Shown here piece after piece: positions 36,182 to 57,803 of a DNA stretch of 64,000 nucleotides. Made by a program: the position numbers and the translations under genes. The notes below the pieces were generated by a model. That model had not been told where the DNA came from, ran no database searches, and saw nothing but the letters and a program-made list of their open reading frames with translations. Every line of letters begins with the position of its first letter. Position 1 is the stretch's first letter. The DNA comes from an uncultured Acidobacteriaceae bacterium (lineage in GTDB: Bacteria > Acidobacteriota > Terriglobia > Terriglobales > Acidobacteriaceae): NCBI GenBank assembly GCA_964243375.1, contig CAXTEE010000005.1, positions 51,006-115,005 of the forward strand, in the 5' to 3' direction.

Positions 36182-39100
36182 TCACTGCGCCACCTGTGCG
36201 ACGCAGTGAAGTCCGGCGAGCGAGCCAGGCACGAGGATACTCGCCGCGGGCCCGGAGATCTCGATTCGTTCGGTTAATGGCGTGCCGTTCACAATGATAG
36301 GTGTGCCTGAGATCTCTAGCGGATAAGCAAGGCGAACAGGCGTTGCAGTCTGTTCCACTCGGCCTCTATCCACAAGATGAAACAAAGACCAGTTTCCCGA
36401 GAATTGCAGTGGGAGGTTGTTACTTCCGTAGCTTGCAATTAATTGGGCCTGTTGTGCAGTCTGCGCCGACCAGGTGAACTGCGTGCTGACATCGCTGCCC
36501 GATAAGCGCTGTGCGTCAAGAGCAAGTGTTACGCCTTGAATGCCAGGCGATGGCGGGATATGCGCGGTAAAGTTCAGCGTCGGTGTAGCTGCTCCATTTG
36601 CAAAAAGAGCGTTGGACAGTGCTGCGGCGCGATTGAAGAACTCAATGAATTGCGAGGTCGGCTTCAGAACGGCGAGGGGAGAGGCCACCCAACGATCACC
36701 TTGCTGCACAAGCTGTGGTTTGAGGCTCGCTTCATAGAACTGCCACAGCAGTCCTGTGGCCGGCTTGAGCGCATTCGTGACTTCGGCCGGAGTTGCCTCA
36801 AGAGTCGCTTTCCGATCAAAGGGGAATTTGGCGAGGATCGGAGCTAAATTCGAGCAGAAAGCTCGACCCGCCAGATTGATCTGTTCCGGTGCTGCGCCGC
36901 GTATTGCATCCTCGACCGAAGTGATCGGCTCCTGCATGAGCTTTGTAAGGGTCTGTTCCACGTGTGCCTGAGTATTGATATCAAAGGCCTGAGCGGTTTG
37001 GCTCACAGCCGCATGAGCACTTATTGCCGCGGCAATCACGGGTTGAGCTGCTGATGGATTGTTCGGAGCGGAGACGTCTTGAGTAAATTGCGACACGGCT
37101 CCACTCAAACCGATCAAGCCGTTCACATAAACTGTGTTTCCAGAACCGATCAATCTATCCTTCACTGTTGGCGGCACAAGGGCCTGTGCGGGCTGGAACT
37201 CGTGTGCGACTAAGTCACCAGCTACTGCTGTATTGCTTGACGCGGTCGCAACAAGGGCCAGCAGAGCTGAGTTAGGTGAGGATAGGCTTTGCAGCTTCTG
37301 ATGAGCGTCAGCTAAGCTTCGGTATCGAACCACCGTGGCGGAACGCAGATATTGGAGCCATTGCTCCTTGAAGTCAGATAGGTAGCGGGCTCCGAGCTTC
37401 TGCCCAAGCGCCTGCCCCTGAGTTGATGCGGCAACCTGTTCTCCAAGCACCCAGGTTTCGCCAGTAAAATACTGGTCGGGATGCTCCACGGCTCGCTGTA
37501 CAAAGACAAATCCCGCCCGGCTAAATGCCCCCGGCACAACGTGCGACTCAATTACAGTCGCCACCGAGCCTGGAAACATGTGATTAAAATCTATCGCTGG
37601 CGAACCCTGTGAAGCTGCCGCAAGGATGTTCTGGTAAATGCGATCTAGACTCCCGAAGCTATTCAGGTAGCTGCGCGCACGAGTGATCGCAGTTAGGTCT
37701 GGACTCTGATCATAGAGCTGCGCGGCGCGGAGCTCTTCACCATAAAAGCGAAATTGCTGATCGGCTAGTTGGAGTTGCCTGTCACTTTCTGTGTGTTGGC
37801 CATTGAGCCAGAACTTCTCCAGCACAGGTGCAAGGAAAGCCGAAGTGCTGAATTGGTGATAAGACGTAGTGATCAGATAAGCGCGAAGCGGAGAGTAGAC
37901 CGCACGATAGTCGGCATCCGCAGGCGCAATAGCTGGCAGGCTGGTCAGAGCCCTTTGCATGTTCTCTTGTGTGCTTGCGAGCAGGAGCCAGTGAAATCGT
38001 TCTAAGTACAGTTGGCGTGCAGGACCGATCAGCGAGTCTCCATAATAGAGACCCCACCGAGACATTAGCGGAGCTCCGTCTCGATTAAACTGCTCAAGCT
38101 CGAGTAAGGCAAGCCGGAGTTGATCGAGCTCGCCCAGTTGAACACTTGAGGCAAGTGACACAGGAGCCGCAGTTGCTGGGAGAGAGGCGGCGGCGGCGCG
38201 GATCACGCCTTCCATGCGCGCATTGTTTCTGTACGAGATTGTGAGACAGATGCCCCAAGCGAGTAGAAGGGACGACGTTGCTATCAGCAGGCCCCGGCGC
38301 AGCAATGAAACACGTACGCTTGATGAATTCGTAAGCTTACGTTCCTGCTGCGCCAAAAAGACGTCTGGAAAGATCCTTGGCAGGAAGCACCATTGTGCGA
38401 TGCGGCGGCTGACACTCTGTGGGAGAGCGGTGGATGCCTCCGCGATCTCGATCTGCTGCAATGAAAGAATGCCTGTTGCCGCACCTTTGCTTAAAACGCG
38501 GCCCGGCACAGCGGCAGGAGCGCTGATAGCCTGCTCAATAATTTGCGCGCGAACTCCTACGCAGAACAAGCCGCGTAGAGAAGGATTAACGTTGAGGTGG
38601 CTTGGACGTGCGAGCTCAACGAGATAGCTAGCTAGATTACTCCGAAGCTTCTGCAGTTCACGCGGGAATTGATAGATGAGAGGTATGTGGTCGGATGCTG
38701 CTTCGCGGCCAAGAACCTCCAGCCTAAACTCTGTCAGCGAAAAAAAGAGCTTGTCCAGCGCTGAGGACAGAACGGCCGAGGCGTGCTCCGCGTAGACGCC
38801 CTGTGTGAGAATGCCGGAGGGAAGCAGCACACCGAGACGCTCGGAAGCCTCAGCGTTGTTGAGGTTGCGCGTGTATTCAGCAAAGCCGGGGACTCGATCC
38901 AGTTTTGTGAGCAGCACATGCACCGGAAGCTCCGCCCCGAGGTGATCTGCAATCTGGCGAAGCACAGCGTTAGTCTCTCGGCCAAGCGCCGCAGAAGCTT
39001 CAGCCGCATTCACTCCGAAGAACGATTCGCTGCTGACGCACACAACCGCGGCGCGCAACGGACGCGTTACGCCGAAGACAGATCGCAGAAGCTTTGGTCT

Positions 39101-39631
39101 GGTACGACGGACGAGGACGTTTGCGAGGCTTCTCCAATGCGGAGTCCCTGGCGCAAGCGCCTCCCCGGCATCAACGAGTAGCGCGCCTTGCGCATACCAG
39201 AGATTGACGACTCGGGTGGAGGCGATCACTTCGTCCTGATAGGCCTGCCCGGCAAGGAGCTCAGGATCAAGTCCTGATTTCAGGATCATCGTTGTTTTCG
39301 CGCTGTTTGACGATCCCAGAATATATAGCAGGGGGATTGTGTGAAGCGAAGGAGAAACACCCACACCGTGGGAGCCTGCGAGACGCTGCTCAGCCTCTCG
39401 CAACAGTGCGGTGAACTCTAAGCTCCTCGTTGCTGACCTTGAGGGGGAGCCGGATTCAGCGCGACGTGACCATAACCAATAGACAAAGAAAGCGGTCGCA
39501 GCACCGAGCAGAACAACGCCGATACGAAAGAGAAGAAGTGGCGTGCCCTGCAGATGGAGCGCGGGTGCGGCCAGCCAGATCAGCAGCGTGGAGAGCAGCA
39601 GAAAAAGTGCGGGGTATAAGTACAAAGCCAC
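36182..39631 (-). CDS. tssM: T6SS membrane complex TssM (ImcF)
   Basis: Two N-terminal TMs; ImcF-N (LYILGSSNSAKTT, LTKLDRVPGFAEY); third TM; C-terminal GNWSLFHL. Confidence 0.9.
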   Translation of the reverse strand: MALYLYPALFLLLSTLLIWLAAPALHLQGTPLLLFRIGVVLLGAATAFFVYWLWSRRAESGSPSRSATRSLEFTALLREAEQRLAGSHGVGVSPSLHTIPLLYILGSSNSAKTTMILKSGLDPELLAGQAYQDEVIASTRVVNLWYAQGALLVDAGEALAPGTPHWRSLANVLVRRTRPKLLRSVFGVTRPLRAAVVCVSSESFFGVNAAEASAALGRETNAVLRQIADHLGAELPVHVLLTKLDRVPGFAEYTRNLNNAEASERLGVLLPSGILTQGVYAEHASAVLSSALDKLFFSLTEFRLEVLGREAASDHIPLIYQFPRELQKLRSNLASYLVELARPSHLNVNPSLRGLFCVGVRAQIIEQAISAPAAVPGRVLSKGAATGILSLQQIEIAEASTALPQSVSRRIAQWCFLPRIFPDVFLAQQERKLTNSSSVRVSLLRRGLLIATSSLLLAWGICLTISYRNNARMEGVIRAAAASLPATAAPVSLASSVQLGELDQLRLALLELEQFNRDGAPLMSRWGLYYGDSLIGPARQLYLERFHWLLLASTQENMQRALTSLPAIAPADADYRAVYSPLRAYLITTSYHQFSTSAFLAPVLEKFWLNGQHTESDRQLQLADQQFRFYGEELRAAQLYDQSPDLTAITRARSYLNSFGSLDRIYQNILAAASQGSPAIDFNHMFPGSVATVIESHVVPGAFSRAGFVFVQRAVEHPDQYFTGETWVLGEQVAASTQGQALGQKLGARYLSDFKEQWLQYLRSATVVRYRSLADAHQKLQSLSSPNSALLALVATASSNTAVAGDLVAHEFQPAQALVPPTVKDRLIGSGNTVYVNGLIGLSGAVSQFTQDVSAPNNPSAAQPVIAAAISAHAAVSQTAQAFDINTQAHVEQTLTKLMQEPITSVEDAIRGAAPEQINLAGRAFCSNLAPILAKFPFDRKATLEATPAEVTNALKPATGLLWQFYEASLKPQLVQQGDRWVASPLAVLKPTSQFIEFFNRAAALSNALFANGAATPTLNFTAHIPPSPGIQGVTLALDAQRLSGSDVSTQFTWSAQTAQQAQLIASYGSNNLPLQFSGNWSLFHLVDRGRVEQTATPVRLAYPLEISGTPIIVNGTPLTERIEISGPAASILVPGSLAGLHCVAQVAQ

Positions 39632-39639
39632 GTGAACTC

Positions 39640-40323
39640 CTAGAGCCCGTTAAGGGCACTCCCCCGCAGAGCGTCGATGCCGGATGAGAGCAAGGCGTGA
39701 TATCCCGTAAAGGCAATCAGCAATAGAGCGACGAACGCGCAGGCGGTCCAGAGAAGATATCGGTTGAATGTTTCGGGAGATCGGTGGGAGTCTGCGGACG
39801 GCAGCTCTTCCGCAACCAACCGGGCATCACCCCGAATACGCCGGATGCGCTTGCGCGCTTCCCGCAGCTGGGCGTACAGCTCTCCACTTCCTCCAAGAGC
39901 ATGCCTGCCCCTGTAACCGAGCAGAAGGCAGAGACAGTAGAGCTCCAGAACATCGGCCAAATGAGGAGAATCAGGCTGTCGAAGATAATCGCGGAGATTG
40001 CGGAAGAAGGTCTCCCCTGCAAGATGACCTCCGAAAAGCTCTTCCTGAAGCGGACGTCGTGCCCACTGCGCGAACACAGGATCCTGCAGGTTTAACACGC
40101 TCTCATCGAGCAGGGCCACGACCGCGAAGACAGCTGCCTGAACAGTGTCTCCTGTATATCCGAGTGCGCGCGCTTGGTGCATGGGCGCCTGAAGAGCTTG
40201 CCGGATTTGTACGCGGAACACCTCAGCATCAGTAACAGGCTGCAACCGAAAGCGAACGCGAACGACTGCCGTAAGCACTTCACCAAAGGAGGACGCGAGG
40301 CTTGCCGAGCGTGTGCTGCTCAT
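39640..40323 (-). CDS. tssL: T6SS TssL (DotU family), no OmpA domain
   Basis: AVVALLDESVL, WARRPLQEELFG..AGETFF, CLLLGYRGRH, C-terminal TM. Confidence 0.93.
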   Translation of the reverse strand: MSSTRSASLASSFGEVLTAVVRVRFRLQPVTDAEVFRVQIRQALQAPMHQARALGYTGDTVQAAVFAVVALLDESVLNLQDPVFAQWARRPLQEELFGGHLAGETFFRNLRDYLRQPDSPHLADVLELYCLCLLLGYRGRHALGGSGELYAQLREARKRIRRIRGDARLVAEELPSADSHRSPETFNRYLLWTACAFVALLLIAFTGYHALLSSGIDALRGSALNGL

Positions 40324-41684
40324 GCCATGCTTTCCGTTGAGTCTTCAAGAATGACGGTCAGCGTGAACTCTGGGTCGGCGAGTTCGCCGGGAATGTAGAT
40401 GCCAACGGATCTAGTCTGAAGAATGTGCTGCCAGCAAGGGCCTGTGGTGTCGATAGCGTAGTACTGCATGTCGGCAGCTGCACGAATGGACGAAGGTGGC
40501 ACGGGAAGATGGGCCAGCGCCATGCCGGGCAACGCACGCTTCACTAGCTCTGGTACGAATCGCTCACTGCATATCTTTACGAGCTTCGGGGCCCGACGAA
40601 GCTGATCTGACTCCGCAAGAGAAGAGCGAAGGCCAAGCACCCACCGAGCCCTTCGTAGGCATCGCTCGTCTGCCACCGGGGCGCTGTACATATAGGGCGC
40701 GACCGAGCTGAAAACAAGACCGACCGTGTTGGTCGGTACGATGATCTCAAGGTGTCGGAGAATGTGGCTGGAAATTGTACGAAACGCTGGTCCAGGATTG
40801 AGATGATCGTAGTCTGGAAGGCTCCTCGGATCTGAATCGAGAGCGAAGGTGCAGAGCGCTCCCGCCAGCCTTGCAAGTTCCGCGAAACACTCGGAAGGAT
40901 GCGCGTAGCACGCATTGACCAGATGTTGCAGCGGTGGCAGAGCACTGTGAAGAGCATGAAGGAACCAGTAATTGGCTATATCCATCGCAAGGCCGGGGGG
41001 CTGAAGCTGGCCTTCCATCTGTACAGGACGTGGGATGGCGATACTTTTCTCGGATACGCCCTCCATGATTCGCTTCATCAAGAGTGTAAGCGCATCGCTC
41101 GCACTCAGACGAAGCGAACACGGAATGAAGTCAGGGTCATACGCAAAGTTGCCGTTTGAATCGCGAATGATACGGGCGATCGGCAGTGTGAGGATCCCTG
41201 GTGTTACCTCAGGCGTTGCCAGTATGCGAATGTTCTTCCGTCCTAGCTCGACGTCATACTCATCGACGCCATTCGTTTCATCCCGTAGCGACCGAAGCAC
41301 GCCCGAGTAACGTGGCTCTGACGTCTCCGTCCGTGAAGTGTCGTAATCATCTCTATCCCGTACAGGCACCGCAAGCTGTAAGACAATTTCTCCGTCAGAA
41401 GGATGCGTAAGTGAACTGACGGACCGTGGCGGCGGCAACGAGTCGGAAGTGGGCATGTCAAACGTCAAGCCGTCTGAAAAGATCCCCGATCCATGCAAGA
41501 GCGCCACCGTGCCGTTTGCGATGGCTTTTATGTCCATCTGGAGATGCAGAATGCCCCAAGGTTCTCGCCAAAGGCAGGACGCCAGAAATGTGATCGAATC
41601 CTCAAAGTAGCGGCTCTGAGTTTGAAAGTGATGAGGCGCGAGATACATACCCTCCGACCACACCACTCGTGAAAGAAACTTCAT
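40320..41684 (-). CDS. tssK: T6SS baseplate TssK, copy 1
   Basis: VVWSEGMYLAPHHFQ, YDHLNPG, LVKRALPGM. Confidence 0.93.
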   Translation of the reverse strand: MKFLSRVVWSEGMYLAPHHFQTQSRYFEDSITFLASCLWREPWGILHLQMDIKAIANGTVALLHGSGIFSDGLTFDMPTSDSLPPPRSVSSLTHPSDGEIVLQLAVPVRDRDDYDTSRTETSEPRYSGVLRSLRDETNGVDEYDVELGRKNIRILATPEVTPGILTLPIARIIRDSNGNFAYDPDFIPCSLRLSASDALTLLMKRIMEGVSEKSIAIPRPVQMEGQLQPPGLAMDIANYWFLHALHSALPPLQHLVNACYAHPSECFAELARLAGALCTFALDSDPRSLPDYDHLNPGPAFRTISSHILRHLEIIVPTNTVGLVFSSVAPYMYSAPVADERCLRRARWVLGLRSSLAESDQLRRAPKLVKICSERFVPELVKRALPGMALAHLPVPPSSIRAAADMQYYAIDTTGPCWQHILQTRSVGIYIPGELADPEFTLTVILEDSTESMA

Positions 41685-41763
41685 ATCTACTCATCCGTCC
41701 CGCCTCTCCGGTGATGCTTTCGAAGCATCGTGCCCTGATACGCCGGAAAGTTCTGCACTGCCT

Positions 41764-41794
41764 GAAATAACCCCCCACCTTAACGGTTTATTCC
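41764..41794. promoter_or_regulatory. Overlapping divergent ECF-type promoter motifs (9-13-9 quasi-palindrome)
   Basis: Plus strand GAAAT(41764)-N17-GTTTA; minus strand GGAAT(41794)-N18-GTTAT. Confidence 0.6.
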
Positions 41795-41842
41795 ACCGCG
41801 GACAACGAGTTCGACGCGCATCGAGAGAAAAGAGGATGAAGT

Positions 41843-42814
41843 ATGAGCAACGAAGAAGAGCCATCCAAAGTCTCGCTACCGCAGAAGGTACAGGAGGCAC
41901 TTAGGGCCAATGGAACAGCACCGAAGGTAAGCACGACTCACGGAGCGGATCTAATTGGCATCTTCAAGCAGGTAAATGTTCGCGAAGCATCGGCCTCACC
42001 ATTGGAAGACCGGTTCAGAACCAGTAATAAACAGGCGGGGACGGCCACGGATATTTTCTCAACAACAACACCGGAGTCTGTGGGTGTCGAGCCGGGATTT
42101 ACACAGATCTTCGACTCTCTTTCTGAAAGCAAAGTACTAGACCAGGATCGTCTCGCACCTTCTCCTCGGGCGCAGGATCCGTTACCGTCGTGGAGTGAGC
42201 TGACGTCTAGTAAATCGCGCCAGTCACCGCACTCAGATGGCGCAGGAGATTTTACAAAGCTTTTCGACCGGCTCGACACTCACGGGAAAGAAGATGCCGT
42301 CAGTTTACAGGCGAACTACCATGAAGTGCCGCCTCTACCGCCGGAACCTAAACCGGGCAGTGGGTTTACCCAGCTTCTGCGAACACTCTCCAGTGAGAAC
42401 GATTCACCTGCCGATACAGGACGCGAAAACGGTTCGATCACCGTGCAGCCTGCACCCGAAGCACCGGGGGAGTTCACTCGCATCCTTTCACGCTCCGCAC
42501 TGCGGGCATTAAGCCAACGTGGTACCCAGAATGACACACCTAAGCCTGACCGATCGGAACCAGAGGAACACATCCATTTGCCGCGGTCTCTGACGCACAA
42601 TTTGCCCATAAACACTAGCCCCTCCAACTTCGCAGGCTTGAGAGATCCACAGGTCTCAAGCGCTCCCGAGCCGCCATTCGCTAACGCAGGGGTGAACCTT
42701 CAGCGTGGCGGAAAGCTGCAGGAGTTTGTGCCTCTACTTTTGATCGCAAACCTCTTTGCCATGCTCGTTGTAATTCTTCTGGTCGCAATCGCACTCTTCA
42801 GCCATCACGGATGA
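41843..42814 (+). CDS. Low-complexity tail-anchored protein with repeated G-x-F-T-x-[IL]-[FL] motifs
   Basis: AGAGGA upstream; S/P/T-rich; PGFTQIF, GDFTKLF, SGFTQLL, GEFTRIL; C-terminal TM. Confidence 0.8.
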   Translation: MSNEEEPSKVSLPQKVQEALRANGTAPKVSTTHGADLIGIFKQVNVREASASPLEDRFRTSNKQAGTATDIFSTTTPESVGVEPGFTQIFDSLSESKVLDQDRLAPSPRAQDPLPSWSELTSSKSRQSPHSDGAGDFTKLFDRLDTHGKEDAVSLQANYHEVPPLPPEPKPGSGFTQLLRTLSSENDSPADTGRENGSITVQPAPEAPGEFTRILSRSALRALSQRGTQNDTPKPDRSEPEEHIHLPRSLTHNLPINTSPSNFAGLRDPQVSSAPEPPFANAGVNLQRGGKLQEFVPLLLIANLFAMLVVILLVAIALFSHHG

Positions 42815-42823
42815 AGCACCTTG

Positions 42824-44197
42824 CTAGCTCGAACCTCGCTGATCTGTCATAACAACAGGAAGAAGAATGAGTTCCATGCGCGGGTTTCGCAGTTCGTCGG
42901 GCACGTATACACCAAAATTGCGAGCCCTCTGAACGGTTTCCCAGGCGGCCCCGACGCGATCCAAACTGAAATATTGAAAATGTAGCTTAACCGGGATTTC
43001 TCTAGGAGGTGAGGCCACATGCGTCATGGGAATTCCAGGAAGTGCCTGGCGGATGAGAGTCTCAAGATGCGTAGCGGAGCAGGCTTTAACAAGTGCCGGC
43101 GTCCGCGTTACAAGTTCTGCAATGGGAACGTCGGCAGCAATTGCGAGATAAGCCCGCGCACCTAGAAGGTACTCATCGCGCTCTATCTCGGTCGTGTAGA
43201 CCGAATCGCGACTCTGGCGGAGTGGCAGAGCAAGAAACCTACTTGGAATCACCGTGTCAAGCAGGTGCAGGATTTGCGACTCGAGCTTGCAAAAGCTGCT
43301 GCCCTGTGTCTCGTGCTCGTAGCGCGGAAAATCCAATGGCCCGACAGTGTGCGAGAAGGTCGTGAGTGCACCAGCAAGCGCAAGCAGTTGCTTGTATAGG
43401 GATTCTGGATGGACGTGCGAAGCCTCAAGCAACCCGTGCAGGATGGGCAGATGTGAGTTGATTGTGTACAGCAGCCAGAAGCTGGCCACATCCGCCGCGC
43501 TAAAATCTGCCAGAGACTGGCTCCTCTGACGGCGACCTCCGGCAATCTGCGCACTTCGGGACACTAGCGTCTCCACCAGACCGCGCAGCGTCCTCAGGAG
43601 GCGGCTGCTTGCTCGAACGTTGAGCATAGGTCCGACAAAATCCTGATCGAGTGTGTAGCGGCCCGCATCCGTGCGCAAGACACGCGTGAGCGGGATGGTA
43701 ATGAGACCTTCAAGATTCTCATGCTCCGCGACAATTCTCAGGTTCTTGCGCGCGAGTGATACAGGCTTTTCCACACCTCCGCCGTTTTCATCGCGAAGCA
43801 TTCGAAGCTCTGCGTAGAATCGCGTGCTGAGACCACTACGCTGCTGAGCTACATGAATGCCACCGCGTCTGGCCTCTGGAATTGCCAAAAAGAACGTACA
43901 AGCGTTCATCCCACCGCTCATACATTCATCCAAGGACCGCGAAGGCGGCGCCTCGTCAGCTGTCGCAGTATCAAACGGAAGTCCGTCTGGGAACAGACCG
44001 GACACTTCAGCCAGTTGAAGCTGCCCTTCGATGATGGAGGCATTCTCTATCTGGAGCGAAGCATATCCCCAAAAGCGAAATGACAGGGCCTCCATATTAA
44101 AGCGCAAAGACTCTTCGAAGTACCTATCTTGCGCCTGGAGGTGTTGGGGAGAGAGAAAAACACCTTTGGACCAGATAACCGGTTGTAGCTGCCTCAT
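42824..44197 (-). CDS. tssK: T6SS baseplate TssK, copy 2
   Basis: GAGGA RBS, MRQLQPVIWSKGVFLSPQHLQ; LIRQALPGI. Confidence 0.93.
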   Translation of the reverse strand: MRQLQPVIWSKGVFLSPQHLQAQDRYFEESLRFNMEALSFRFWGYASLQIENASIIEGQLQLAEVSGLFPDGLPFDTATADEAPPSRSLDECMSGGMNACTFFLAIPEARRGGIHVAQQRSGLSTRFYAELRMLRDENGGGVEKPVSLARKNLRIVAEHENLEGLITIPLTRVLRTDAGRYTLDQDFVGPMLNVRASSRLLRTLRGLVETLVSRSAQIAGGRRQRSQSLADFSAADVASFWLLYTINSHLPILHGLLEASHVHPESLYKQLLALAGALTTFSHTVGPLDFPRYEHETQGSSFCKLESQILHLLDTVIPSRFLALPLRQSRDSVYTTEIERDEYLLGARAYLAIAADVPIAELVTRTPALVKACSATHLETLIRQALPGIPMTHVASPPREIPVKLHFQYFSLDRVGAAWETVQRARNFGVYVPDELRNPRMELILLPVVMTDQRGSS

Positions 44198-44297
44198 AGT
44201 TTCCTCGATGTTCAACCGACCAACCATCTAGACCGTCGGTCCTCTGCGACTGCAAGCAGCTCACTTACTTAGATACGCAAGCAAATTGATCCACACG

Positions 44298-44328
44298 GGA
44301 ATAGACACTCGCCACCCGTGTTTATTCC
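44298..44328. promoter_or_regulatory. Overlapping divergent ECF-type promoter motifs (GGAATAGAC-N13-GTTTATTCC)
   Basis: Plus strand GGAAT(44298)-N17-GTTTA toward tssB; minus strand GGAAT(44328)-N17-GTCTA toward tssK2. Confidence 0.65.
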
Positions 44329-44417
44329 AGCAGAGCAAAGTAGGACTGCCCGAGCCGATCGAGGCAGGGTCGTTCAACTCGTTACATTTTATAGTTCCCG
44401 GAGTGATAGGAGCAGAC

Positions 44418-44930
44418 ATGACTAGAGAAAGTACACAACGCAAGTTGAGCCGGGTCCGTCCACCGCGCGTGCAAATCACCTACGACGTGGAAGTCGGCGA
44501 TGCTATTGAGTTGAAGGAACTGCCATTCGTAATGGGAATTCTCGCAGATCTCACCGGACAACCAGAGCAGCCACTTGCGCCGCTTAAGGAGCGAAAGTTC
44601 ACCGAAATAACCCCGGACAATTTTGACGCCGTCCTCAGCAGTCTAGACCCTCGTCTCGCCTTTTCCGCCGAGAATGTCCTCAGCAACGATCCGACCAAGG
44701 GGCAGCTGCACGTGGACTTGCATTTTGAATCCATGGACGACTTTTCCCCCGAGCGCGTAGCTGCACGGATTGAGCCTTTGCGGCAGTTGCTCGAACTTCG
44801 CACCAAGCTCTCCGATTTGCAGGGTAGCTTGCAAGGCAATGACAAGCTCGATGAAGCACTGTTCGCTGCTGTGACCAACACAGAGCTCCGCGAGAAGCTT
44901 CGCTCCGAACTGAACACCCCGGGAGAATAG
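44418..44930 (+). CDS. tssB: T6SS sheath small subunit TssB
   Basis: STQRKLSRVRPPRVQITYDVE, ELPFVMGILAD, DFSPERVA. Confidence 0.96.
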   Translation: MTRESTQRKLSRVRPPRVQITYDVEVGDAIELKELPFVMGILADLTGQPEQPLAPLKERKFTEITPDNFDAVLSSLDPRLAFSAENVLSNDPTKGQLHVDLHFESMDDFSPERVAARIEPLRQLLELRTKLSDLQGSLQGNDKLDEALFAAVTNTELREKLRSELNTPGE

Positions 44931-44932
44931 TG

Positions 44933-46429: not shown

Positions 46430-46470
46430 GGCAAACAGTGACTAACCACGACGAATAGGAGCGGAACTGC

Positions 46471-47645: not shown

Positions 47646-47656
47646 GGGAGTCTGTC

Positions 47657-49375: not shown

Positions 49376-49383
49376 GGGAACAC

Positions 49384-49845: not shown

Positions 49846-49847
49846 CG

Positions 49848-51692
49848 ATGCGACAGCAACTTCTGGAATATTACGAACGCGAACTCGGCTATATGCGGCA
49901 GATGGGAGCCGAGTTCGGAAAGAAGTACCCGGCGGTGGCCGGTCGCCTTCTCCTCGAATCTGATCGTTGTTCGGATCCCCATGTCGAGCGATTGCTGGAG
50001 TCCTTCGCATTCCTGGCCGCGCGCATTCACCTCCGGCTCGACGACGATCTCCCCGAACTCACGCAAAGCATTCTGGATCTTGTCTATCCCGACTACCTAC
50101 GCCCTATCCCTTCAATGTCGATCGCTGAGTTCGCGCCGGGTGAGATGCGCGCTGAGGGAGGCAGCGCATTGAGCATACCTGCCGGAAGCGAGCTCACCGC
50201 GAAGCGGACAAAGGATGGCGTTGCATGTAAATTTCGTACCGGCTACCCGGTCGCCCTATGGCCGGTTGACCTGAAGGAGTGCGAGTGGAAACGTCCGGAA
50301 CAAATCACCAATCCTTTACGCGTCAGCGAAGCCTGTGCCGTTCTACGACTGGTTCTCAAGTGTGGACGCGACCTCTCGTTCGGAAAAATCGGTATAGACC
50401 GGCTCACCTTCTATCTTGCAGGGGAGGCCAGTGTCACGCTACCGCTTTATGAATTTCTCTCCCGCGATCTACTGCAGGTTCTTGTCCGCGATCCGCTTCG
50501 AAAGCAAGCGTCAGCGGTACCGCTTGCTTCAACCAAGCTGCGGCCCATGGGCTTTGCTCCCGAGGAGAGCCTCCTTCCCTACTCGCAGCGCTCGTTCCAG
50601 GGGTACCATCTGCTCCAGGAATACTTCTGCTTTCAGGAGAAGTTCCTCTTCTTTCAACTCGAAGGGCTGCAGGCTGCGGCTGAAGCTGCAAACATCTCCG
50701 GAGAGATGGAGCTTCTCTTCTACGTGTCGCAGTTCGAACAAACGGAACGCATGCAGACGCTTGAGCTAGGTGTTTCGACTGACACCCTTCGCCTGAACTG
50801 CACGCCCATTATCAACCTGTTTCAGACCACTGCAGAACCGGTTCTGGTCTCGCAGACGCGTCATGAGTACCCCGTAACTGTGAACGCGCGTAGTCGTGCG
50901 AGCGCTGAAATTTTCTCCATTGACTCGGTACTCGCGACCAATCCCTCCAGGCGCACCTCTGTCACGCTGCCACCACTCTTCGAGCGTCGTTTTTTGGTAG
51001 CTCCTGCACAATCCTCAGCGTTCTGGCGAGCAACCCGTAAGTATTCGCAGCTGGACAAAGGCCGCCCCAGCGACGTCTATCTTTCCGTCGTTGATGTGCA
51101 GGGGGCAATGGTTGAGCCAAACGCCGAGATTCTCACGGTGGGCTGCACCTGCACTAACCATGAACTCGCTTCAAAGCTCCCGTTCGGCGATGCCGACGGC
51201 GACTTCTATCTAGACGGCGGCTCTGGCGTGGGAAAGATTCAGGTTCTGCATCGCCCCACACCAACCTATCCCGCACCCGCTGGAGGTGAACAGGTGTGGA
51301 GTCTGATCTCACAACTATCTCTGAACCACCTGTCCGTTGGGGAAACTGGCCTTCCTGCACTGCGCGAGATCCTGCGCCTCCACAACTTCACCGCAGCTGC
51401 CCATCTGAATAAGCAGATCGACGGGCTTCTTTCCATGCAGGCTAGGAAGCATGTCGCGATTATGCAGAGTGAATTCGGAAGTGTCGCTGCGAGAGGCATG
51501 CTCGTCGATATGGAACTTGACGAGTCACATTTTCCAGGTGGCGGCGCATACCTATTTGGCGCCGTGCTCGATCAATTTCTTGGCCTATACGTCTCAATGA
51601 ACAGCTTTTCGCAGCTGAGAGTTCGCACCCCTGCGAGAAAGGAGGCATTAGGCTCATGGCAACCGAGAGCAGGCAGCCAAGCGCTGCTATAG
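49848..51692 (+). CDS. tssF: T6SS baseplate TssF
   Basis: LLEYYERELGY, DPHVERLLESFAFL, LNCTPIINLF. Confidence 0.96.
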   Translation: MRQQLLEYYERELGYMRQMGAEFGKKYPAVAGRLLLESDRCSDPHVERLLESFAFLAARIHLRLDDDLPELTQSILDLVYPDYLRPIPSMSIAEFAPGEMRAEGGSALSIPAGSELTAKRTKDGVACKFRTGYPVALWPVDLKECEWKRPEQITNPLRVSEACAVLRLVLKCGRDLSFGKIGIDRLTFYLAGEASVTLPLYEFLSRDLLQVLVRDPLRKQASAVPLASTKLRPMGFAPEESLLPYSQRSFQGYHLLQEYFCFQEKFLFFQLEGLQAAAEAANISGEMELLFYVSQFEQTERMQTLELGVSTDTLRLNCTPIINLFQTTAEPVLVSQTRHEYPVTVNARSRASAEIFSIDSVLATNPSRRTSVTLPPLFERRFLVAPAQSSAFWRATRKYSQLDKGRPSDVYLSVVDVQGAMVEPNAEILTVGCTCTNHELASKLPFGDADGDFYLDGGSGVGKIQVLHRPTPTYPAPAGGEQVWSLISQLSLNHLSVGETGLPALREILRLHNFTAAAHLNKQIDGLLSMQARKHVAIMQSEFGSVAARGMLVDMELDESHFPGGGAYLFGAVLDQFLGLYVSMNSFSQLRVRTPARKEALGSWQPRAGSQALL

Positions 51693-52723
51693 ACGAAGTA
51701 AGTGTTAACGCTATGCAGCAATCGCTACACGCACTGATGGAAGCCGAACCGCATAGCTTCCGCTTCTTTCAGATGGTCCGGCTACTGGAGAAGCTTCATC
51801 CTGACCGCCGCGCCGTGGGCATCTTCGTCTCGCCATCGGATGAAGTAGTGCGATTCACCGCGGCGCCGGCACTCACCTTTCCTCCAAGCGAAATCGGACC
51901 GTATCGGCCCGGTATCGATCGCCCGGCTTCTCTTGAAGTGAACTTCCTGGGGCTCAACGTGGTGAACGGTCCCATGCCACGTAGCTACACGGAAAGTCTT
52001 CTGGAACTGAAACGAGCCAAGGATCGCGCAACTCTGGAGTTCTTCGATCTCTTCAACCATCGCATAGTATCGCTGTTCTACCGTGCTTGGGCTCGCTATC
52101 GTTTCTATCTTGCCTACGAAAAATCAGGCGGAGGGGGCGACCATGAGATTACGGAGCGACTCTACGATCTCGTCGGCTTAGGCACGCCAGACCTGCGCAA
52201 CCGTATGGCTATTCCGGACGAAAGCGCGATCTACTACTCCGGTCTTCTCAGTAGAGACGTTCGGTCCGTTGAAGCTCTCCGGCAAATTCTGGAGAGCTAC
52301 TTCAGCGTACGCGTTGAGGTTCGGCAGTTCACGGGCTCGTGGGTTTCTCTGCCGCGGGAGCAGCGGACGGTGTTGAACGACAGCGCAATGCCGTCCGAGT
52401 GTCTCGGCATCGGAACGGTCATAGGCCACGAGGTGTGGGATCAGCAAGGCACCATGACGGTGCGGCTTGGTCCCATGCCTCTCGACCGGTATCGCGAATT
52501 TCTGCCTGGCTCCCGTGGTCAGGTAGAGCTCAGCGCGTGGCTCAACTTCTACTCGCGGCGAGTGTTCGATTTTGTTGTACAGCTCGTGCTCGAACGGACC
52601 CAAGTTCCGCATACGGCGCTCGAGACCGGTGAGGCCATGCACGGCCGTCTCGGCTATGAGAGCTGGTTAAAGACCAAACCCATGCGCCGCGATCCCGACG
52701 AAACAACCTACTTAGTCAGATAA
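51656..52723 (+). CDS. tssG: T6SS baseplate TssG
   Basis: FRFFQMVRLLE, FFDLFNHRIVSLFYRAW, VRLGPM. Confidence 0.95.
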   Translation: MATESRQPSAAIDEVSVNAMQQSLHALMEAEPHSFRFFQMVRLLEKLHPDRRAVGIFVSPSDEVVRFTAAPALTFPPSEIGPYRPGIDRPASLEVNFLGLNVVNGPMPRSYTESLLELKRAKDRATLEFFDLFNHRIVSLFYRAWARYRFYLAYEKSGGGGDHEITERLYDLVGLGTPDLRNRMAIPDESAIYYSGLLSRDVRSVEALRQILESYFSVRVEVRQFTGSWVSLPREQRTVLNDSAMPSECLGIGTVIGHEVWDQQGTMTVRLGPMPLDRYREFLPGSRGQVELSAWLNFYSRRVFDFVVQLVLERTQVPHTALETGEAMHGRLGYESWLKTKPMRRDPDETTYLVR

Positions 52724-52732
52724 GGACATCTT

Positions 52733-55393
52733 ATGGTCACAAACATCAAGTCACTCGTTTCCCGGTTCGATGATGGAACCAGACAGGCTATGGAGGGCGC
52801 GGCAGGCCTTTGTCTTTCAAGAACCCACTATGAAATTGAGATCGAGCATTTCCTCGTGAAGGCCTTCGAGCCAGAGAACACCGACCTGCCTTTAATTGCT
52901 CTGCACTTCGGAGTGAGCAGGGGGCATCTCGATTCGCAACTCAGGGCCGGTCTCGATCGCTTAAGATCTGGGAATACGCGTGGCCCCGTATTCAGCCCGG
53001 CGCTGGTGAAGATGTTTACCGAAGCCTGGTCACTTGGAAGCCTGAACTTTGGCGCGACCAACGTTCGTACGGGGCACGCGCTTTTGGCGTTGTTGAGTGA
53101 AGATGGTCTCGCGCGTATCCTTCGCGACTTGAGTCAGGAGCTTCGTAAGATCTCGCTCGAGGCACTTCTGCGGGAGTTCGATTCGATCACTGCCTCATCG
53201 ATCGAAGTGGAGACGTTTACTGGTTCTCACAGTTCGGGAAGGACATCGCCGGGAGTCACACCCTTCCTCGACCAGTACACCGTCGATCTGACGCACGCCG
53301 CGCGCGATGGCCGTATCGATGCGGTCGTCGGCCGCGACGCGGAGATTCGGCAGATGATCGACATCCTTATGCGTCGCCGACAGAACAATCCCATCCTCAC
53401 TGGCGAAGCAGGCGTGGGGAAGACAGCTGTTGTTGAAGGCCTGGCACAGCGCATCGCGGCAGGAGATGTACCGCAGGCGCTTGCATCTGTGCGCCTCCAC
53501 AGTCTCGATCTGGCCCTCCTGCAGGCGGGCGCCAGCGTAAAGGGCGAGTTTGAAAACAGATTGAAGGGCTTAGTTCAGGAGGTAAAAGCTTCCCCCGCTC
53601 CAATTATTCTCTTCATCGACGAAGCGCACGCGATGATCGGAGCAGGCGGGCAGCAGGGACAGGGCGACGCAGCGAACATCCTCAAGCCGGCACTCGCGCG
53701 CGGAGAACTTCGTACGATTGCGGCAACCACCTGGGCAGAGTACAAACGCTACTTCGAGAAGGATGCTGCACTGGTACGCCGATTCCAGGTCGTCAAGGTG
53801 GAGGAACCCTCCGAGCAGGTGTGCGAAGCCATGTTGCACGGCATCTTGCCCTCGCTGGAAAAACACCATCGCATCCGCATTCTGGATGAAGCAATTGGAG
53901 CTGCTGTCCGGCTTTCCCACCGCTATCTTCCTGGTCGCCAGCTTCCCGACAAAGCAGTAAGTGTTCTCGATACCGCATGCGCGCGGGTAGCGCTCAGTCA
54001 GCACACCCATCCCACGACCATGGTGTCCCTCACGCGCCGCATTGAGATGCTCGAGACCCATAAGCGCGTCTTGCTGCGTGAACTAGCGACGGGAGCGCAG
54101 CATGCCGAGCGTATTGCGGAAGGTGACGAACAAATTCGACTCGCCACGGAGGATTTGGAACGGCTTCGCGAACGATGGGCTAAAGAAGGAGAGCTCGTTC
54201 GCAGGATAGAAGCGCTCTATGTCGTTCTCGAGGACGGGCAGGCATCCGGGGGAGAGGAGCGCGCCGAGGCTCTTACCGAGCTAAGTGACTTACGTGCACG
54301 TTTGCGCGACTCTCAATCGCAGATCCCGCTCACCCACCTTGCTGTCGACGCACAGGTCGTCGCCTCCGTTGTCTCGGAGTGGACCGGAATCCCTCTCGGC
54401 AAGATGATGGACGACGAGATCGTCAAGGTCTTGAACTTGGAAGCGGAGCTCAAAAATCGAATCATAGGTCAGGACCACGCGCTCGCAGCCATCGCTCAAC
54501 GCGTTTGGACATCGCGAGCCAACATGGATGATCCCGGAAAGCCCATCGGCGTGTTCATGTTGGTTGGGCCCAGTGGCGTCGGTAAAACGGAGACCGCGCT
54601 TGCGCTCGCGGATCTCCTCTATGGAGGCGAGCACAACATGGTGACGATAAACATGTCTGAGTTTCAGGAGCCGCACTCCGTCTCCACACTGAAAGGCGCG
54701 CCACCGGGATATGTGGGCTACGGCGAAGGAGGCGTACTCACCGAAGCCGTGCGCCGCCAGCCATATTCTGTCATCCTTCTGGACGAAGTCGAAAAGGCTC
54801 ATCCAGACGTGCTCGAGTTGTTCTTCCAGGTCTTCGACAAAGGCCAGATAGAAGATGGCGAGGGTCGCTCGATCGACTTCCGCAACACGCTCATCCTGCT
54901 AACGACGAACGCGGCAAGCGACCTCATCTCCAAGTTGTCGGCCGATGCAGAAACAACGCCTCTTCCCGCCAACATGGCCGCCGCGATTCGGCCCGAGCTC
55001 AACCGCGTTTTCAGGCCTGCATTTCTGGGCCGCACGCTGGTCGTGCCCTACTACCCGGTTCACGATGAGGTTTTGAAGCGGATCATCCGTCTCAAGCTCA
55101 GTAAGATCGAGCGACGACTCCTTGAGAACCACCGCGTGCGACTTGCATATGGGGACGACCTCGTCGAATTGGTTCGGCAGCGCTGCACCGAAGTCGAGAG
55201 TGGCGCGCGCAACGTCGACCATTTGCTCTCGAATACGCTCTTGCCTGAAATGGCGCGCGGTCTGCTGGCGCGTATGGCCGACGAAGAATCTATCGAGAGT
55301 GTCGCCGTCAGCGTATCGGCCGCGGGTGACCTCACCTACGCTTGGTCCGCCTCCAAGCATGATGAGGTCCCCGCCGCCTACATCTTGGCGTAG
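52733..55393 (+). CDS. tssH: T6SS AAA+ ATPase ClpV (TssH)
   Basis: GEAGVGKT and GPSGVGKT Walker A motifs; ClpV N-terminus; CTEVESGARNVD. Confidence 0.96.
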   Translation: MVTNIKSLVSRFDDGTRQAMEGAAGLCLSRTHYEIEIEHFLVKAFEPENTDLPLIALHFGVSRGHLDSQLRAGLDRLRSGNTRGPVFSPALVKMFTEAWSLGSLNFGATNVRTGHALLALLSEDGLARILRDLSQELRKISLEALLREFDSITASSIEVETFTGSHSSGRTSPGVTPFLDQYTVDLTHAARDGRIDAVVGRDAEIRQMIDILMRRRQNNPILTGEAGVGKTAVVEGLAQRIAAGDVPQALASVRLHSLDLALLQAGASVKGEFENRLKGLVQEVKASPAPIILFIDEAHAMIGAGGQQGQGDAANILKPALARGELRTIAATTWAEYKRYFEKDAALVRRFQVVKVEEPSEQVCEAMLHGILPSLEKHHRIRILDEAIGAAVRLSHRYLPGRQLPDKAVSVLDTACARVALSQHTHPTTMVSLTRRIEMLETHKRVLLRELATGAQHAERIAEGDEQIRLATEDLERLRERWAKEGELVRRIEALYVVLEDGQASGGEERAEALTELSDLRARLRDSQSQIPLTHLAVDAQVVASVVSEWTGIPLGKMMDDEIVKVLNLEAELKNRIIGQDHALAAIAQRVWTSRANMDDPGKPIGVFMLVGPSGVGKTETALALADLLYGGEHNMVTINMSEFQEPHSVSTLKGAPPGYVGYGEGGVLTEAVRRQPYSVILLDEVEKAHPDVLELFFQVFDKGQIEDGEGRSIDFRNTLILLTTNAASDLISKLSADAETTPLPANMAAAIRPELNRVFRPAFLGRTLVVPYYPVHDEVLKRIIRLKLSKIERRLLENHRVRLAYGDDLVELVRQRCTEVESGARNVDHLLSNTLLPEMARGLLARMADEESIESVAVSVSAAGDLTYAWSASKHDEVPAAYILA

Positions 55394-55413
55394 CAAGGAA
55401 AGGTTCGTGCGGT

Positions 55414-57348
55414 GTGCCCGGCTATACACAAACAAATCGCATTTTGCGGCTCAACAGCTCCCTAGGAGCGAACACACTGCTTCCCATGGGTTTCAGCGGC
55501 AGCGAGGCCCTCTCGGAACTCTTCGAGTATAGTGTCGACCTCCTGACAGAATCCTACGTTGTCATCGCACCCTCCGCGATCGTTGGCAAACGGGTGACCG
55601 TCGAACTTCAGGTAACAGACACCGGAACGAAGCGGTACTTCAATGGCATGGTTGCGAGTATCGAAGGCAATGGGGGAAGCACGCTCTTCAACAGCTATCG
55701 CCTGCGTATGGTCCCAATGTTGTGGCTGCTCTCACTCAACCAGCAGACGCGCGTCTTTCAGGACATGTCCGTGCTTGATATCACACGCAAGGTATTGGCG
55801 CCGTATAGCATCACCCCCAAAGTCGAAACGCACACAACCTACCAGATCTTGCAGTACTGCACGCAGTATCGCGAAACCGATCTTGAGTTCGTCCTGCGTA
55901 TCTTGGAGCAGCACGGCATCTTCTTCTACTTCACACATAGTGCCTCCGACCACGTGCTCGTCCTCTCGGATGCAAGCACCCTTTGTGGAGAGTGCTCTGT
56001 GGTCAGCGAATTCGACTTCTTCGTGGAAAGGGAGCGGCAGCTTAGCTTCTATAAGCCCATCATCCTCGGCTTCCGGTCGCGTTCCACGCTCATTCCGGGT
56101 GAGCACACGGCTTGGGACTACCGCTTCATGCGTTACGACGTGTCGCACGCAAATCCGCAGACCTTGCATTCTACCGCCGAGATGGGTGAGAACAGCCACG
56201 AAATGTATGACTTTAGCGACTCAGCAGCAGCGTTCTTCAAGACCGAAGCAGCTGAATACAGGACGCCCCTGCAGCAAACGCTAATGCAAAGAGTGAACCG
56301 CGACGCTATCGATGCGCAGGCCGTCGTCTGCTCTGGTGAATCCACCGCCAGCACCATGCAGGCCGGGTTCAGCTTCAAGCTTCGGAAGTACCCACAGACC
56401 GAAAAGAATATTAAGTACCTCCTCACGCGAGTCACGCACTCTGTGCAACAACAGCCGGGCTACCAGGCCGAGATTACTTTGCCGGATGATGACCCTTACA
56501 CAAACACGTTTGAGGCCCAACCCTTTTCTCACATCTACCGCAAGGCGAGAACCATGGTTAAGCCACGTGTCTACGGCGTTGTCACCGGCAAGGTAGTCAC
56601 CTCTCCGGGAGATGACTCGCATCTCGATCGCTTCGGCAGGGTCTGCGTGCAGTTCTGGTGGGATCGCCATCGTCCCCCGCAAACACCTGACAAGACCCTC
56701 CTCCGCGTCGCTCAGCAATGGGCCGGGAAGGGGTGGGGAACGTACTTCTGGCCTCGCGTCGGGGACGAAGTGCTCATCGATTTTATCGAGGGCGATCCCG
56801 ACGCTCCTGTCGTCGTCGGCTCACTCTACAACGGCGTCAACATGCCGAAGTATGATCCAAAGTCCGAGTACACCCGCTCAGGCATTCTGACGCGATCCTC
56901 TCGAAGAGGAACGGAGGAGAATGCCAATGAACTTCGCTTTGAAGATCTGCGAGGGGCGGAACAAATCTTCGTAAAAGCGGAGCACGACATCGACGAGCGC
57001 ATCAAGCACGACTCGAGACGCTGGGTGGGCAACCAGGACTCACTTGTCGTCATAGGAGACCAGCTGGAAAGGGTGGAAGGAAGCCAGTACGCAACGGTCC
57101 TGGGAAACATCCTGCAGAAGGTGGACGGCTCTTCTTCCTCGATCGTTGCTGACCAAATCATTGTGCAGTCCGGAACGCAGATAACGCTGCAAGTAGATTC
57201 TTCCTTTATTCAGCTAAGTCCTGCTGGGGTGGTGATCTCAGGGCCGCTGGTTCGGATTAATAGTGGAGGAACCCCCGGGATGAGCCCAGGAATACCAAGG
57301 AATCCGGATGTAGCCGACGACGGCACCAAGGGAGGCAAGTTGTCGTAA
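55414..57348 (+). CDS. vgrG: T6SS spike VgrG (TssI), no C-terminal effector extension
   Basis: YCTQYRETDLEF, WPRVGDEVLIDFIEGDPD, NELRFED. Confidence 0.95.
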   Translation: MPGYTQTNRILRLNSSLGANTLLPMGFSGSEALSELFEYSVDLLTESYVVIAPSAIVGKRVTVELQVTDTGTKRYFNGMVASIEGNGGSTLFNSYRLRMVPMLWLLSLNQQTRVFQDMSVLDITRKVLAPYSITPKVETHTTYQILQYCTQYRETDLEFVLRILEQHGIFFYFTHSASDHVLVLSDASTLCGECSVVSEFDFFVERERQLSFYKPIILGFRSRSTLIPGEHTAWDYRFMRYDVSHANPQTLHSTAEMGENSHEMYDFSDSAAAFFKTEAAEYRTPLQQTLMQRVNRDAIDAQAVVCSGESTASTMQAGFSFKLRKYPQTEKNIKYLLTRVTHSVQQQPGYQAEITLPDDDPYTNTFEAQPFSHIYRKARTMVKPRVYGVVTGKVVTSPGDDSHLDRFGRVCVQFWWDRHRPPQTPDKTLLRVAQQWAGKGWGTYFWPRVGDEVLIDFIEGDPDAPVVVGSLYNGVNMPKYDPKSEYTRSGILTRSSRRGTEENANELRFEDLRGAEQIFVKAEHDIDERIKHDSRRWVGNQDSLVVIGDQLERVEGSQYATVLGNILQKVDGSSSSIVADQIIVQSGTQITLQVDSSFIQLSPAGVVISGPLVRINSGGTPGMSPGIPRNPDVADDGTKGGKLS

Positions 57349-57413
57349 TGTCTGACCTGCGATCTCGAGAAACTGACCACCCTCAGAAAAAGATAGTTGA
57401 AGGAGAGACACCA

Positions 57414-57803
57414 ATGCCGCTTCAAACATGCTTAGGTGCAACGCTGCGCTGCAGCTTCGGAGTCGCACCCAGCGAACTGATGGTGCTGCCTGTAAACCGG
57501 GTCATCACCAACGACCGGCCGGATGCCAACATCGGCGATCATGTGCCTCTTATCAACATTCTCCCATTTGGAATGTGTATCTCTGAGGCAAACCCAGCCG
57601 TGATAGCTGCCACCATCGCGGCGCTGGGCGTTCCAACCCCGGCACCCTGCATTCCGGCAACACCTTCCCCTTGGATTCCTGGATCCGTCAACGTCCTTCT
57701 CGGCAACCAACCGAGCTTGAGCAGTGATTCGAAGCTGATGTGCTTGTGGGCTGGCGTAATCACCATAGTCCAGCCTGGTGAGGAGACAGTGCTAATTAGC
57801 TAG
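57414..57803 (+). CDS. DUF4280 PAAR-like spike tip protein
   Basis: ATLRCSFG, NILPFGMC, PAPCIP, LMCLWAGVITI; AAGGAG RBS. Confidence 0.9.
   Translation: MPLQTCLGATLRCSFGVAPSELMVLPVNRVITNDRPDANIGDHVPLINILPFGMCISEANPAVIAATIAALGVPTPAPCIPATPSPWIPGSVNVLLGNQPSLSSDSKLMCLWAGVITIVQPGEETVLIS

Follow-up and report, generated by a model that had tools for sequence, protein, structure and literature searches.

The closest structural reference for the locus described here is the wedge of the Sci-1 type VI secretion system (T6SS) of enteroaggregative Escherichia coli (EAEC), (TssK3)2-(TssF)2-TssG-TssE (PDB 6N38 and 6GIY; TssK in 5M30, 5MWN and 5M2Y). In the E. coli wedge TssG grips two TssK trimers, one with each of its two feet. 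The foot inserts three hydrophobic residues, located in LG repeats, into a pocket to which three TssK chains each contribute their first 15-18 residues, and polar contacts are formed at the rim of the pocket (PMC6300606; PMC8406304). Here we analyze a T6SS cluster from an uncultured Acidobacteriaceae bacterium, located at 36182-57803 of a 64,000-nt stretch of contig CAXTEE010000005.1 (hereafter the window; all coordinates are positions within it), which encodes two TssK proteins, TssK1 (K1) and TssK2 (K2). The reading we prefer, and to which we give about even confidence, is that this locus represents a distinct and conserved T6SS subtype, a single machine that would use both TssK paralogs at once, with one K2 homotrimer and one K1 homotrimer in each wedge.

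The system shares its proteins and folds with EAEC Sci-1; all three TssK domains align, TssG has two feet with LG repeats, and the pocket residues are kept. In contrast to Sci-1, where one TssK occupies both feet, it has two paralogs of 33% identity with paralog-specific N-termini, and the charge of foot 1 is reversed. By gene content only, the closest match is the group 5 T6SS of Agrobacterium tumefaciens and Rhizobium (PMC5813230, PMC3702570), which likewise is without tssJ, has tagJ and includes genes for a Ser/Thr kinase and for a PP2C phosphatase. The Agrobacterium system differs in its one TssK, in an Fha protein reading phospho-TssL and in a TagF-PppA fusion; the window system differs in its two TssKs, in a tail-anchored repeat protein encoded between them and in the lack of any FHA domain in the genome. 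A T6SS without TssJ is also found in Acinetobacter (TsmK/TslA/TagX; PMC10564176; PMC13584744), where lineage-specific accessory proteins compensate and contact the membrane complex and the baseplate, including TssK. Unlike the window system, Acinetobacter has a single TssK, and its accessory proteins appear to differ in kind from the tail-anchored protein.

For the tail-anchored protein the nearest analogs are the Fha/TagH scaffolds (Fha1 of Pseudomonas aeruginosa; the Fha condensates of Acidovorax citrulli), which are likewise long, disordered and linked to a kinase and a phosphatase. Acidovorax Fha binds TssL, TssM and parts of the baseplate including TssK (bioRxiv 10.1101/2023.12.21.572528). 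Unlike these scaffolds, the tail-anchored protein is without an FHA domain, ends in a C-terminal membrane helix and carries GxFTxLF motifs with an invariant threonine. Compared with T6SSs regulated by threonine phosphorylation through PpkA, PppA and Fha, the window holds the kinase and the PP2C phosphatase and lacks the FHA reader (Fha/TagH).

The sequence-only reading of this DNA, made from its letters and open reading frames (ORFs), had remarked that acidobacterial T6SSs are little studied experimentally, and a full-text literature search indeed found no such studies. It found none on TssK paralogs within one cluster either; "two TssK" in that literature means two trimers. The parts of the system are those of an ordinary T6SS-i; it differs in the fixed TssK pair, in a foot 1 of reversed charge and in the tail-anchored disordered protein. 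All three are undescribed in the searched full texts, which include a 2026 review of T6SS accessory factors.

Two TssK paralogs and their common ancestry

Pfam and NCBIfam profiles identify one complete T6SS in the window (tssA-C, tssE-G, tssK-M, hcp, vgrG, clpV, tagJ and a PAAR-like gene). TssA, B, C, D (Hcp), E, F, G, H (ClpV), I (VgrG), K, L and M, each with its Pfam match, are all encoded in a single cluster, which departs from the canonical T6SS-i set of 13 core genes (tssA-M) in two respects: TssJ is undetected, and there are two TssKs, not one. A whole-genome profile search (the source genome is 98.5% complete, in 42 contigs) returned two TssKs, one TssG and no second T6SS core set. The two TssKs have only one TssG and one membrane complex to serve, so this is a single T6SS and not two merged ones. 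The features that bear on the two TssKs are:

36182..39631, minus strand: TssM (IcmF), 1149 aa; PF06761, PF14331, PF21070, PF06744 and TIGR03348; C-terminal IcmF_C domain kept
39640..40323, minus strand: TssL (DotU), short form without peptidoglycan-binding domain; PF09850, E 5e-42
40320..41684, minus strand: TssK1 (K1), 454 aa; PF05936 and TIGR03353; heads the K1-tssL-tssM operon
41764..41794, no strand: near-palindromic element GAAATAACC-N12-GGTTTATTCC in the spacer between K1 and the tail-anchored protein gene
41843..42814, plus strand: tail-anchored disordered protein, 323 aa; four G-x-F-T-x-[IL]-[FL] motifs and a C-terminal transmembrane helix; no Pfam or NCBIfam match
42824..44197, minus strand: TssK2 (K2), 457 aa; PF05936 and TIGR03353; monocistronic and divergent from tssB; ORF extends to 44227
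44298..44328, no strand: second copy of the palindromic element, GGAATAGAC-N13-GTTTATTCC, in the spacer between K2 and tssB
51656..52723, plus strand: TssG, the single copy in the genome; PF06996

K1 scores 391 bits against PF05936 (E 6.7e-117) and 356 bits against TIGR03353, K2 438 bits (E 4.3e-131) and 381 bits (TIGR03353 cut-off 100). The two align with each other at 33% identity over 446 residues with a single gap, and each aligns end to end to EAEC TssK (5M30). AlphaFold models (pLDDT 78 for K1 and 73 for K2) have 5Y0E, 5M30 and 6GIY as top Foldseek matches, and the head domains of both models match 5M2Y with a TM of 0.85-0.87. The models show the shoulder-neck-head fold (beta-sandwich shoulder, helical neck, alpha/beta head) as retained in both predicted structures.

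The K1 stop codon and the tssL start codon overlap as ATGA, and tssM starts 8 nt past the tssL stop; translation of K1 is coupled to that of tssL-tssM. K2 has a divergent promoter region on one side and the convergent gene at 41843-42814 on the other, which makes it monocistronic. Its start was set at ATG 44197, which has a GAGGA ribosome-binding site; all orthologues open with MRQLQP. Profiles, identity and gene layout thus agree with the earlier description of two full-length, divergent tssK genes in separate units, one with tssL-tssM and one on its own.

Conservation of the second TssK was examined in 61 relatives and in 400 genomes from the phylum. T6SSs are patchy in the phylum (47 of the 400 genomes); most clusters have one TssK, and a recurrent type has two. 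Both paralogs were found in the same layout in 23 loci or genomes from Acidobacteriaceae, a Bryobacteraceae metagenome-assembled genome (MAG), three further families and metagenome contigs with K1 relatives named Gemmatimonadaceae. Read in the DNA, this layout is tssC-tssB, divergent from K2, then a gene on the opposite strand, K1-tssL-tssM and a PP2C gene. Counted by genome, it occurs in three members of the same genus and in one each of the same family, a second family of the order, a distant family and another family of the class. It is present in all 10 named loci for which sufficient flank was recovered with K1 (among them Granulicella aggregans M8UP14, Acidobacteriaceae ZG23-2 and TAA 166, and the Bryobacteraceae MAG) and in five metagenome contig types carrying deep-branching members of the K1 or K2 clade. 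NCBI records give the name Gemmatimonadaceae to K1-clade proteins, so the pair covers at least two phyla, Acidobacteriota and Gemmatimonadota. In complete data there is always exactly one K1 and one K2; no locus has three or more TssKs or a single one of the paralogs.

Orthologues share 44-66% identity and paralogs 29-37%, with a mean identity of 0.57 within the K1 clade and 0.58 within the K2 clade. In a maximum-likelihood tree of 51 sequences (support given as bootstrap/SH-aLRT), with which a 171-row tree agrees, the K1 clade is supported at 100/99, the K2 clade at 100/100 and a sister group of single-TssK proteins at 98/94; K1, K2 and this sister group are separated from all other TssKs at 100/99. 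As judged from these sequences, K1 and K2 are shown to have arisen by one ancient duplication. Whether the paralogs form two conserved clades had been proposed as a check by the sequence-only reading, and they do; the second tssK is by no means strain-specific, which that reading had named as a finding that would count against it.

Among close pairs dN/dS is 0.05-0.07 for K1, 0.03-0.10 for K2 and 0.07-0.11 for TssL; K1 and K2 thus evolve under purifying selection of similar strength, much as TssL does. Values of 0.03-0.10 together with equal within-clade identity indicate that neither TssK copy is decaying. A scenario in which one copy is redundant or in decay, or a relic of a second T6SS, has the duplication itself in its favor and nothing further, and is ruled out: both copies are under this constraint, of full length, with intact predicted folds and kept across two phyla, and no second core gene set was found in the genome.

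Two clusters of the sister group (locus L032 of genome G317 and metagenome contig L073) have a single TssK and the gene order tssF-tssG-vgrG-tssK. In these clusters Lys is already present two residues past the pocket tryptophan of TssK, and the TssG feet are acidic.

The same element, the near-palindrome GGAATAAAC-N12/13-GTTTATTCC, precedes both tssK genes and likewise tssB and the tail-anchored protein gene, in each case at a distance of about 100 bp. It faces both directions, in the spacer between K1 and the repeat-protein gene as well as in the spacer between K2 and tssB. A half-site, GGAATAAAG, is located at 31144-31152, 90 bp upstream of the kinase gene. In related loci the element recurs in the spacer between K1 and the tail-anchored protein gene (L013, L014, L015 and L023) and in the spacer between K2 and tssB (L014, and partly L015). 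The ECF sigma factor encoded at 57986-58561 might act on this element. A scan of 36000-46600 for sigma-70 promoters and terminators gave matches no more frequent than chance, and none of the RNA runs searched for the window sequence holds it.

The common element argues against K1 and K2 being condition-specific alternatives. That the two are interchangeable, used according to condition or to the effector or spike load, would parallel the well-known diversification of cargo by multiple VgrG and PAAR paralogs (PMC13373197), and K2 does have a promoter of its own. Nevertheless we regard this as very unlikely, as the same promoter element stands before both genes, complete data always hold exactly one of each, the two clades are ancient and symmetric, and the cluster holds only one VgrG and one PAAR-like gene.

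TssK N-termini and the two feet of TssG

Residues 1-30 are the best-conserved stretch in both paralogs, with a pairwise identity of 0.87 in K1 and 0.79 in K2, and three of the five sites that strictly discriminate the paralogs fall within them. The K1 clade opens with M[KR]FLSRVVWSEGM[YH]L.PHHFQ (MKFLSRVVWSEGMYLAPHHFQ in the window) and the K2 clade with MRQLQPV[IV]WSKG[TV]FL.PQHLQ (MRQLQPVIWSKGVFLSPQHLQ in the window). The pocket residues W8, L14 and F19 of EAEC correspond to W9, L15 and F20 in K1 and to W9, L15 and L20 in K2; the change from Phe to Leu at position 20 is conservative, fixed across the K2 clade and also found in some canonical TssKs. Two residues past the tryptophan (W+2) the paralogs are of opposite charge. 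This residue is acidic (W-x-[ED]-G) in every K1-clade sequence with its N-terminus present and in nearly all other TssKs. Every K2-clade sequence (W-x-[KR]-G), and four of the five from the sister group, have Lys or Arg there.

The TssG feet show a matching difference. Foot 1 comprises about residues 238-262 (containing ECLGIGTVIGHEVWD) and foot 2 about residues 320-345 (containing GRLGYESWLKTKP); in the alignment to EAEC TssG (6GIY_C), L250 and I256 stand opposite L236 and M242. Two positions past the third LG repeat, foot 1 has Glu in all eight two-TssK systems and Arg, Lys or His in all 12 canonical single-TssK systems; in the two Lys-type single-TssK sister systems the residue is acidic or non-basic. 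Foot 2 of the two-TssK systems retains its basic residues. A three-residue insertion in foot 1 of the two-TssK systems was considered as an adaptation and dropped; this stretch is known to vary in length (PMC8406304), and the insertion carries no weight.

We infer, as the simplest reading of these charges, that K2 trimers, with Lys at W+2, would sit on foot 1, where Glu replaces the canonical Arg, Lys or His, and that K1 trimers, with the canonical Glu, would sit on foot 2 with its retained Lys/Arg. Each wedge would then carry a K2 homotrimer on one TssG foot and a K1 homotrimer on the other. K1 would be specialized for docking at the inner membrane, being co-transcribed with TssL and TssM and co-inherited with them and with the tail-anchored protein; K2 would serve wedge, sheath-side or inter-wedge contacts. 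The sequence-only reading had suggested different TssK trimers, or heterotrimers, on the two TssG sites, combined with an alternative envelope anchor. Different trimers fit the paralog-specific N-termini and the charge reversal in foot 1; for an anchor at the outer membrane no candidate was found (see below).

Several points weigh against this arrangement. The co-assembly of K1 and K2 in one wedge is a prediction from sequence. The covariation of charges represents few independent events, the two-TssK subtype and the Lys-bearing sisters being of shared ancestry, and no branching order of K1, K2 and the sister group is favored (AU p 0.42-0.5). EAEC has a His, preceded by an Asp, at the corresponding position of foot 1, so a canonical salt bridge is only presumed. 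In G326 and G317, foot 2 carries Ala at +9 and retains only the Lys/Arg at +7. Finally, G001, a genome 79% complete, shows K2 only and is the sole possible exception to the pairing.

The same pocket could also be built from mixed trimers of K1 and K2 (e.g. 2:1), so that both feet carry the same hetero-oligomer and an asymmetric pocket matches each asymmetric foot. The feet are indeed asymmetric loops in a three-fold pocket (PMC6300606; PMC8406304), the paralogs align with one gap and share many conserved positions in the neck helices, and they are strictly co-inherited under a common promoter element. In contrast, the two genes lie in separate transcription units with different partners, up to hundreds of kb apart in G317 and G373, which disfavors co-translational mixing; a charge reversal in foot 1 only fits two kinds of pocket better than one; and the solved TssK structures (5M30, 5Y0E) are homotrimers. 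We consider mixed trimers decidedly unlikely.

The membrane side: TssJ and a tail-anchored repeat protein

A whole-genome profile search for TssJ gave no match to PF12790 at E<=1 and none to TIGR03352 at E<=0.1, and no TssJ-like or lipobox protein was found in the cluster. TssJ is absent as far as profiles can tell, and a very divergent TssJ is conceivable. The models do work in this phylum, where three genomes have tssJ directly upstream of tssK. The earlier statement that the window holds no tssJ is therefore confirmed by profiles and lipobox inspection of the cluster, and a tssJ elsewhere in the genome, which would have counted against the sequence-only reading, was not detected by either model. 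TssJ went undetected in 23 of the 26 T6SS-bearing acidobacterial genomes, namely in 16 of 19 with a single TssK and in all seven with two. TssJ-less systems are known from Agrobacterium/Rhizobium group 5 (PMC5813230, PMC3702570), Acinetobacter (PMC10564176; PMC13584744) and Xanthomonas. The lack of TssJ is a lineage-wide trait and unrelated to the TssK duplication. Loss of TssJ as the key to the duplication is rejected on the same counts, and so is the link between missing TssJ and the two-TssK design that the sequence-only reading had drawn.

That reading had also supposed an alternative envelope anchor. None was found at the outer membrane. The 431-aa secreted protein at 34044-35339 was considered as a general alternative anchor and rejected, being confined to the closest relatives. 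The component specific to the subtype lies instead on the cytoplasmic side, a disordered protein tail-anchored in the inner membrane. Its gene in the window (41843-42814) is the only ORF of the genome with at least two GxFTx[IL][FL] motifs. Counterparts of 268-891 aa are encoded between K2 and K1, always divergent from K1, in every two-TssK locus read and in none of 15 single-TssK loci; the loci with a counterpart include L003, L004, L005, L008, L013-L023, L030, L044, L045, L069 and L070. The proteins are of low complexity, rich in Pro and Ala, disordered and tail-anchored, and most carry 3-10 G-x-F-T-x-[LM]-[FL] motifs with an invariant Thr. Those of L044 and L070 have no clear motif, and those of L004, L044, L069 and L070 have a small kinase-like head added at the N-terminus. 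This protein is probably a T6SS accessory protein specific to the subtype, located at the inner membrane on its cytoplasmic side.

In genome G035 the assembly breaks within the repeat-protein gene (end of contig C2, L009, and start of contig C1, L010). The motif repeats probably defeat short-read assembly, and two-TssK clusters may be under-counted in draft genomes.

The two TssKs keep different company. In two genomes the cluster is split between distant loci, G373 (L007 and L008) and G317 (L030 and L031), and the seam is constant: the repeat protein stays together with K1, tssL, tssM and PP2C at one locus, and K2 stays with tssBC and the baseplate genes at the other. The paralogs diverge most at the start of the head, K1 residues 331-360, where identity is 0.19 between the clades and about 0.6 within them, and in E. 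coli the TssK head domain contacts TssL/TssM. The linkage of K1 to tssL-tssM and the tail-anchored protein, together with the divergence of the head, suggests K1 as the putative membrane-docking trimer.

In a rival reading K2 is the baseplate TssK on both TssG feet, and K1 has left the wedge to act as an adaptor that is fixed on TssL/TssM and the tail-anchored repeat protein, the membrane module, and receives the baseplate. In its favor, tssL-tssM and the tail-anchored protein gene always accompany K1, split loci included, K2 adjoins tssBC, and single-TssK acidobacterial proteins score nearer to K2 than to K1 overall. We nevertheless think it unlikely. The N-terminus of K1 is its most conserved part (0.87) and keeps W9, L15, F20 and the canonical Glu, which points to a ligand of the TssG-foot type. 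The wedge TssK of ordinary single-TssK clusters also lies in a tssK-tssL-tssM operon, so that this position is no argument against a place in the wedge; and K2 would bring a basic residue to face foot 2, which has remained basic as canonical feet are.

The tail-anchored repeat protein could, by analogy, fill an Fha-like role. A whole-genome search for the FHA domain (PF00498, E<=0.001) gave no match. This leaves the kinase/phosphatase pair no Fha reader to act through, and the idea that an FHA domain reads phospho-Thr in the GxFTxLF motifs is unsupported. As a speculation, the invariant threonines of the repeat protein are candidate substrates of the kinase and phosphatase. The most far-reaching version, which we hold as doubtful, is an obligate hetero-paralogous baseplate with 18 K2 on foot 1 and 18 K1 on foot 2 in fixed, non-equivalent positions. 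K1 would dock onto the membrane module where a multivalent GxFTxLF tether takes the roles of Fha and perhaps TssJ, and the tether might be switched by kinase and phosphatase through the invariant threonines.

The remaining genes and the meaning of the subtype

Upstream of tssM and downstream of the K2/tssB spacer the window contains the following further genes of the system:

31234..34047, plus strand: Ser/Thr protein kinase (PpkA-like); NCBIfam kinase models, E 9e-92; first gene of the kinase/secreted protein/PP2C operon
34044..35339, plus strand: secreted helical/TPR-like protein, 431 aa; signal peptide without lipobox; no family match
35312..36091, plus strand: PP2C Ser/Thr phosphatase (PppA-like); NF033484, E 1.3e-61
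44418..44930, plus strand: TssB (VipA); PF05591; ORF opens at 44286
44930..46429, plus strand: TssC (VipB); PF05943 and PF18945
46471..46956, plus strand: Hcp; PF05638
46956..47645, plus strand: TagJ (ImpE); PF07024
47657..49375, plus strand: TssA (ImpA_N and VasJ); PF06812 and PF16989
49384..49845, plus strand: TssE (gp25-like); PF04965; ORF opens at 49219
49848..51692, plus strand: TssF; PF05947, E 2.7e-211
52733..55393, plus strand: ClpV; AAA_2, AAA_lid_9 and ClpB_D2-small
55414..57348, plus strand: VgrG; PF05954, PF04717 and PF22178
57348..57803, plus strand: DUF4280 PAAR-like spike tip; PF14107; NF041248, IglG-like

The PP2C gene adjoins tssM in most two-TssK loci, and kinase homologues flank the cluster in L013, L014, L023 and L069. 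The 431-aa secreted protein is conserved solely in the closest relatives, L013, L014 and L023. For tssB the start at 44418 is most likely, with AGGAG before the ATG, a PF05591 match that begins at residue 55 of the ORF and orthologues of 165-178 aa; for tssE the start at 49384 is likely by its start codon and ribosome-binding site. The solved sheath proteins nearest to TssC are 9N4V (656 bits) and then Pseudomonas aeruginosa 5N8N (506 bits), H1 TssC1; a literature search on the origin of 9N4V returned nothing. Directly after the PAAR-like gene, 57986-62570 encodes an ECF sigma factor with a zf-HC2 anti-sigma factor, followed by a TPR protein and an FG-GAP/ASPIC protein. On the plus strand at 29463-30905, immediately before the kinase gene, a 480-aa lipoprotein with a clear lipobox (LAGC) is encoded, whose size is not TssJ-like; going by its N-terminus alone, it might be an outer-membrane efflux factor.

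In model systems both TssK trimers of a wedge are the same protein in different surroundings, and their roles are genetically inseparable. A lineage in which the two positions are split into two genes would allow each to be deleted, tagged or mutated alone, and a membrane-docking trimer to be distinguished from a ring-stabilizing one. If the obligate hetero-paralogous baseplate is true, the two TssK positions of every T6SS wedge would be functionally separable and, here, divided between two genes. The finding also defines a widespread, unstudied T6SS subtype in the abundant soil phyla Acidobacteriota and Gemmatimonadota, with K1, K2 and the tail-anchored disordered protein as its markers. Current tools for annotating and classifying T6SSs look for a single TssK and a TssJ, and would be improved by these markers.

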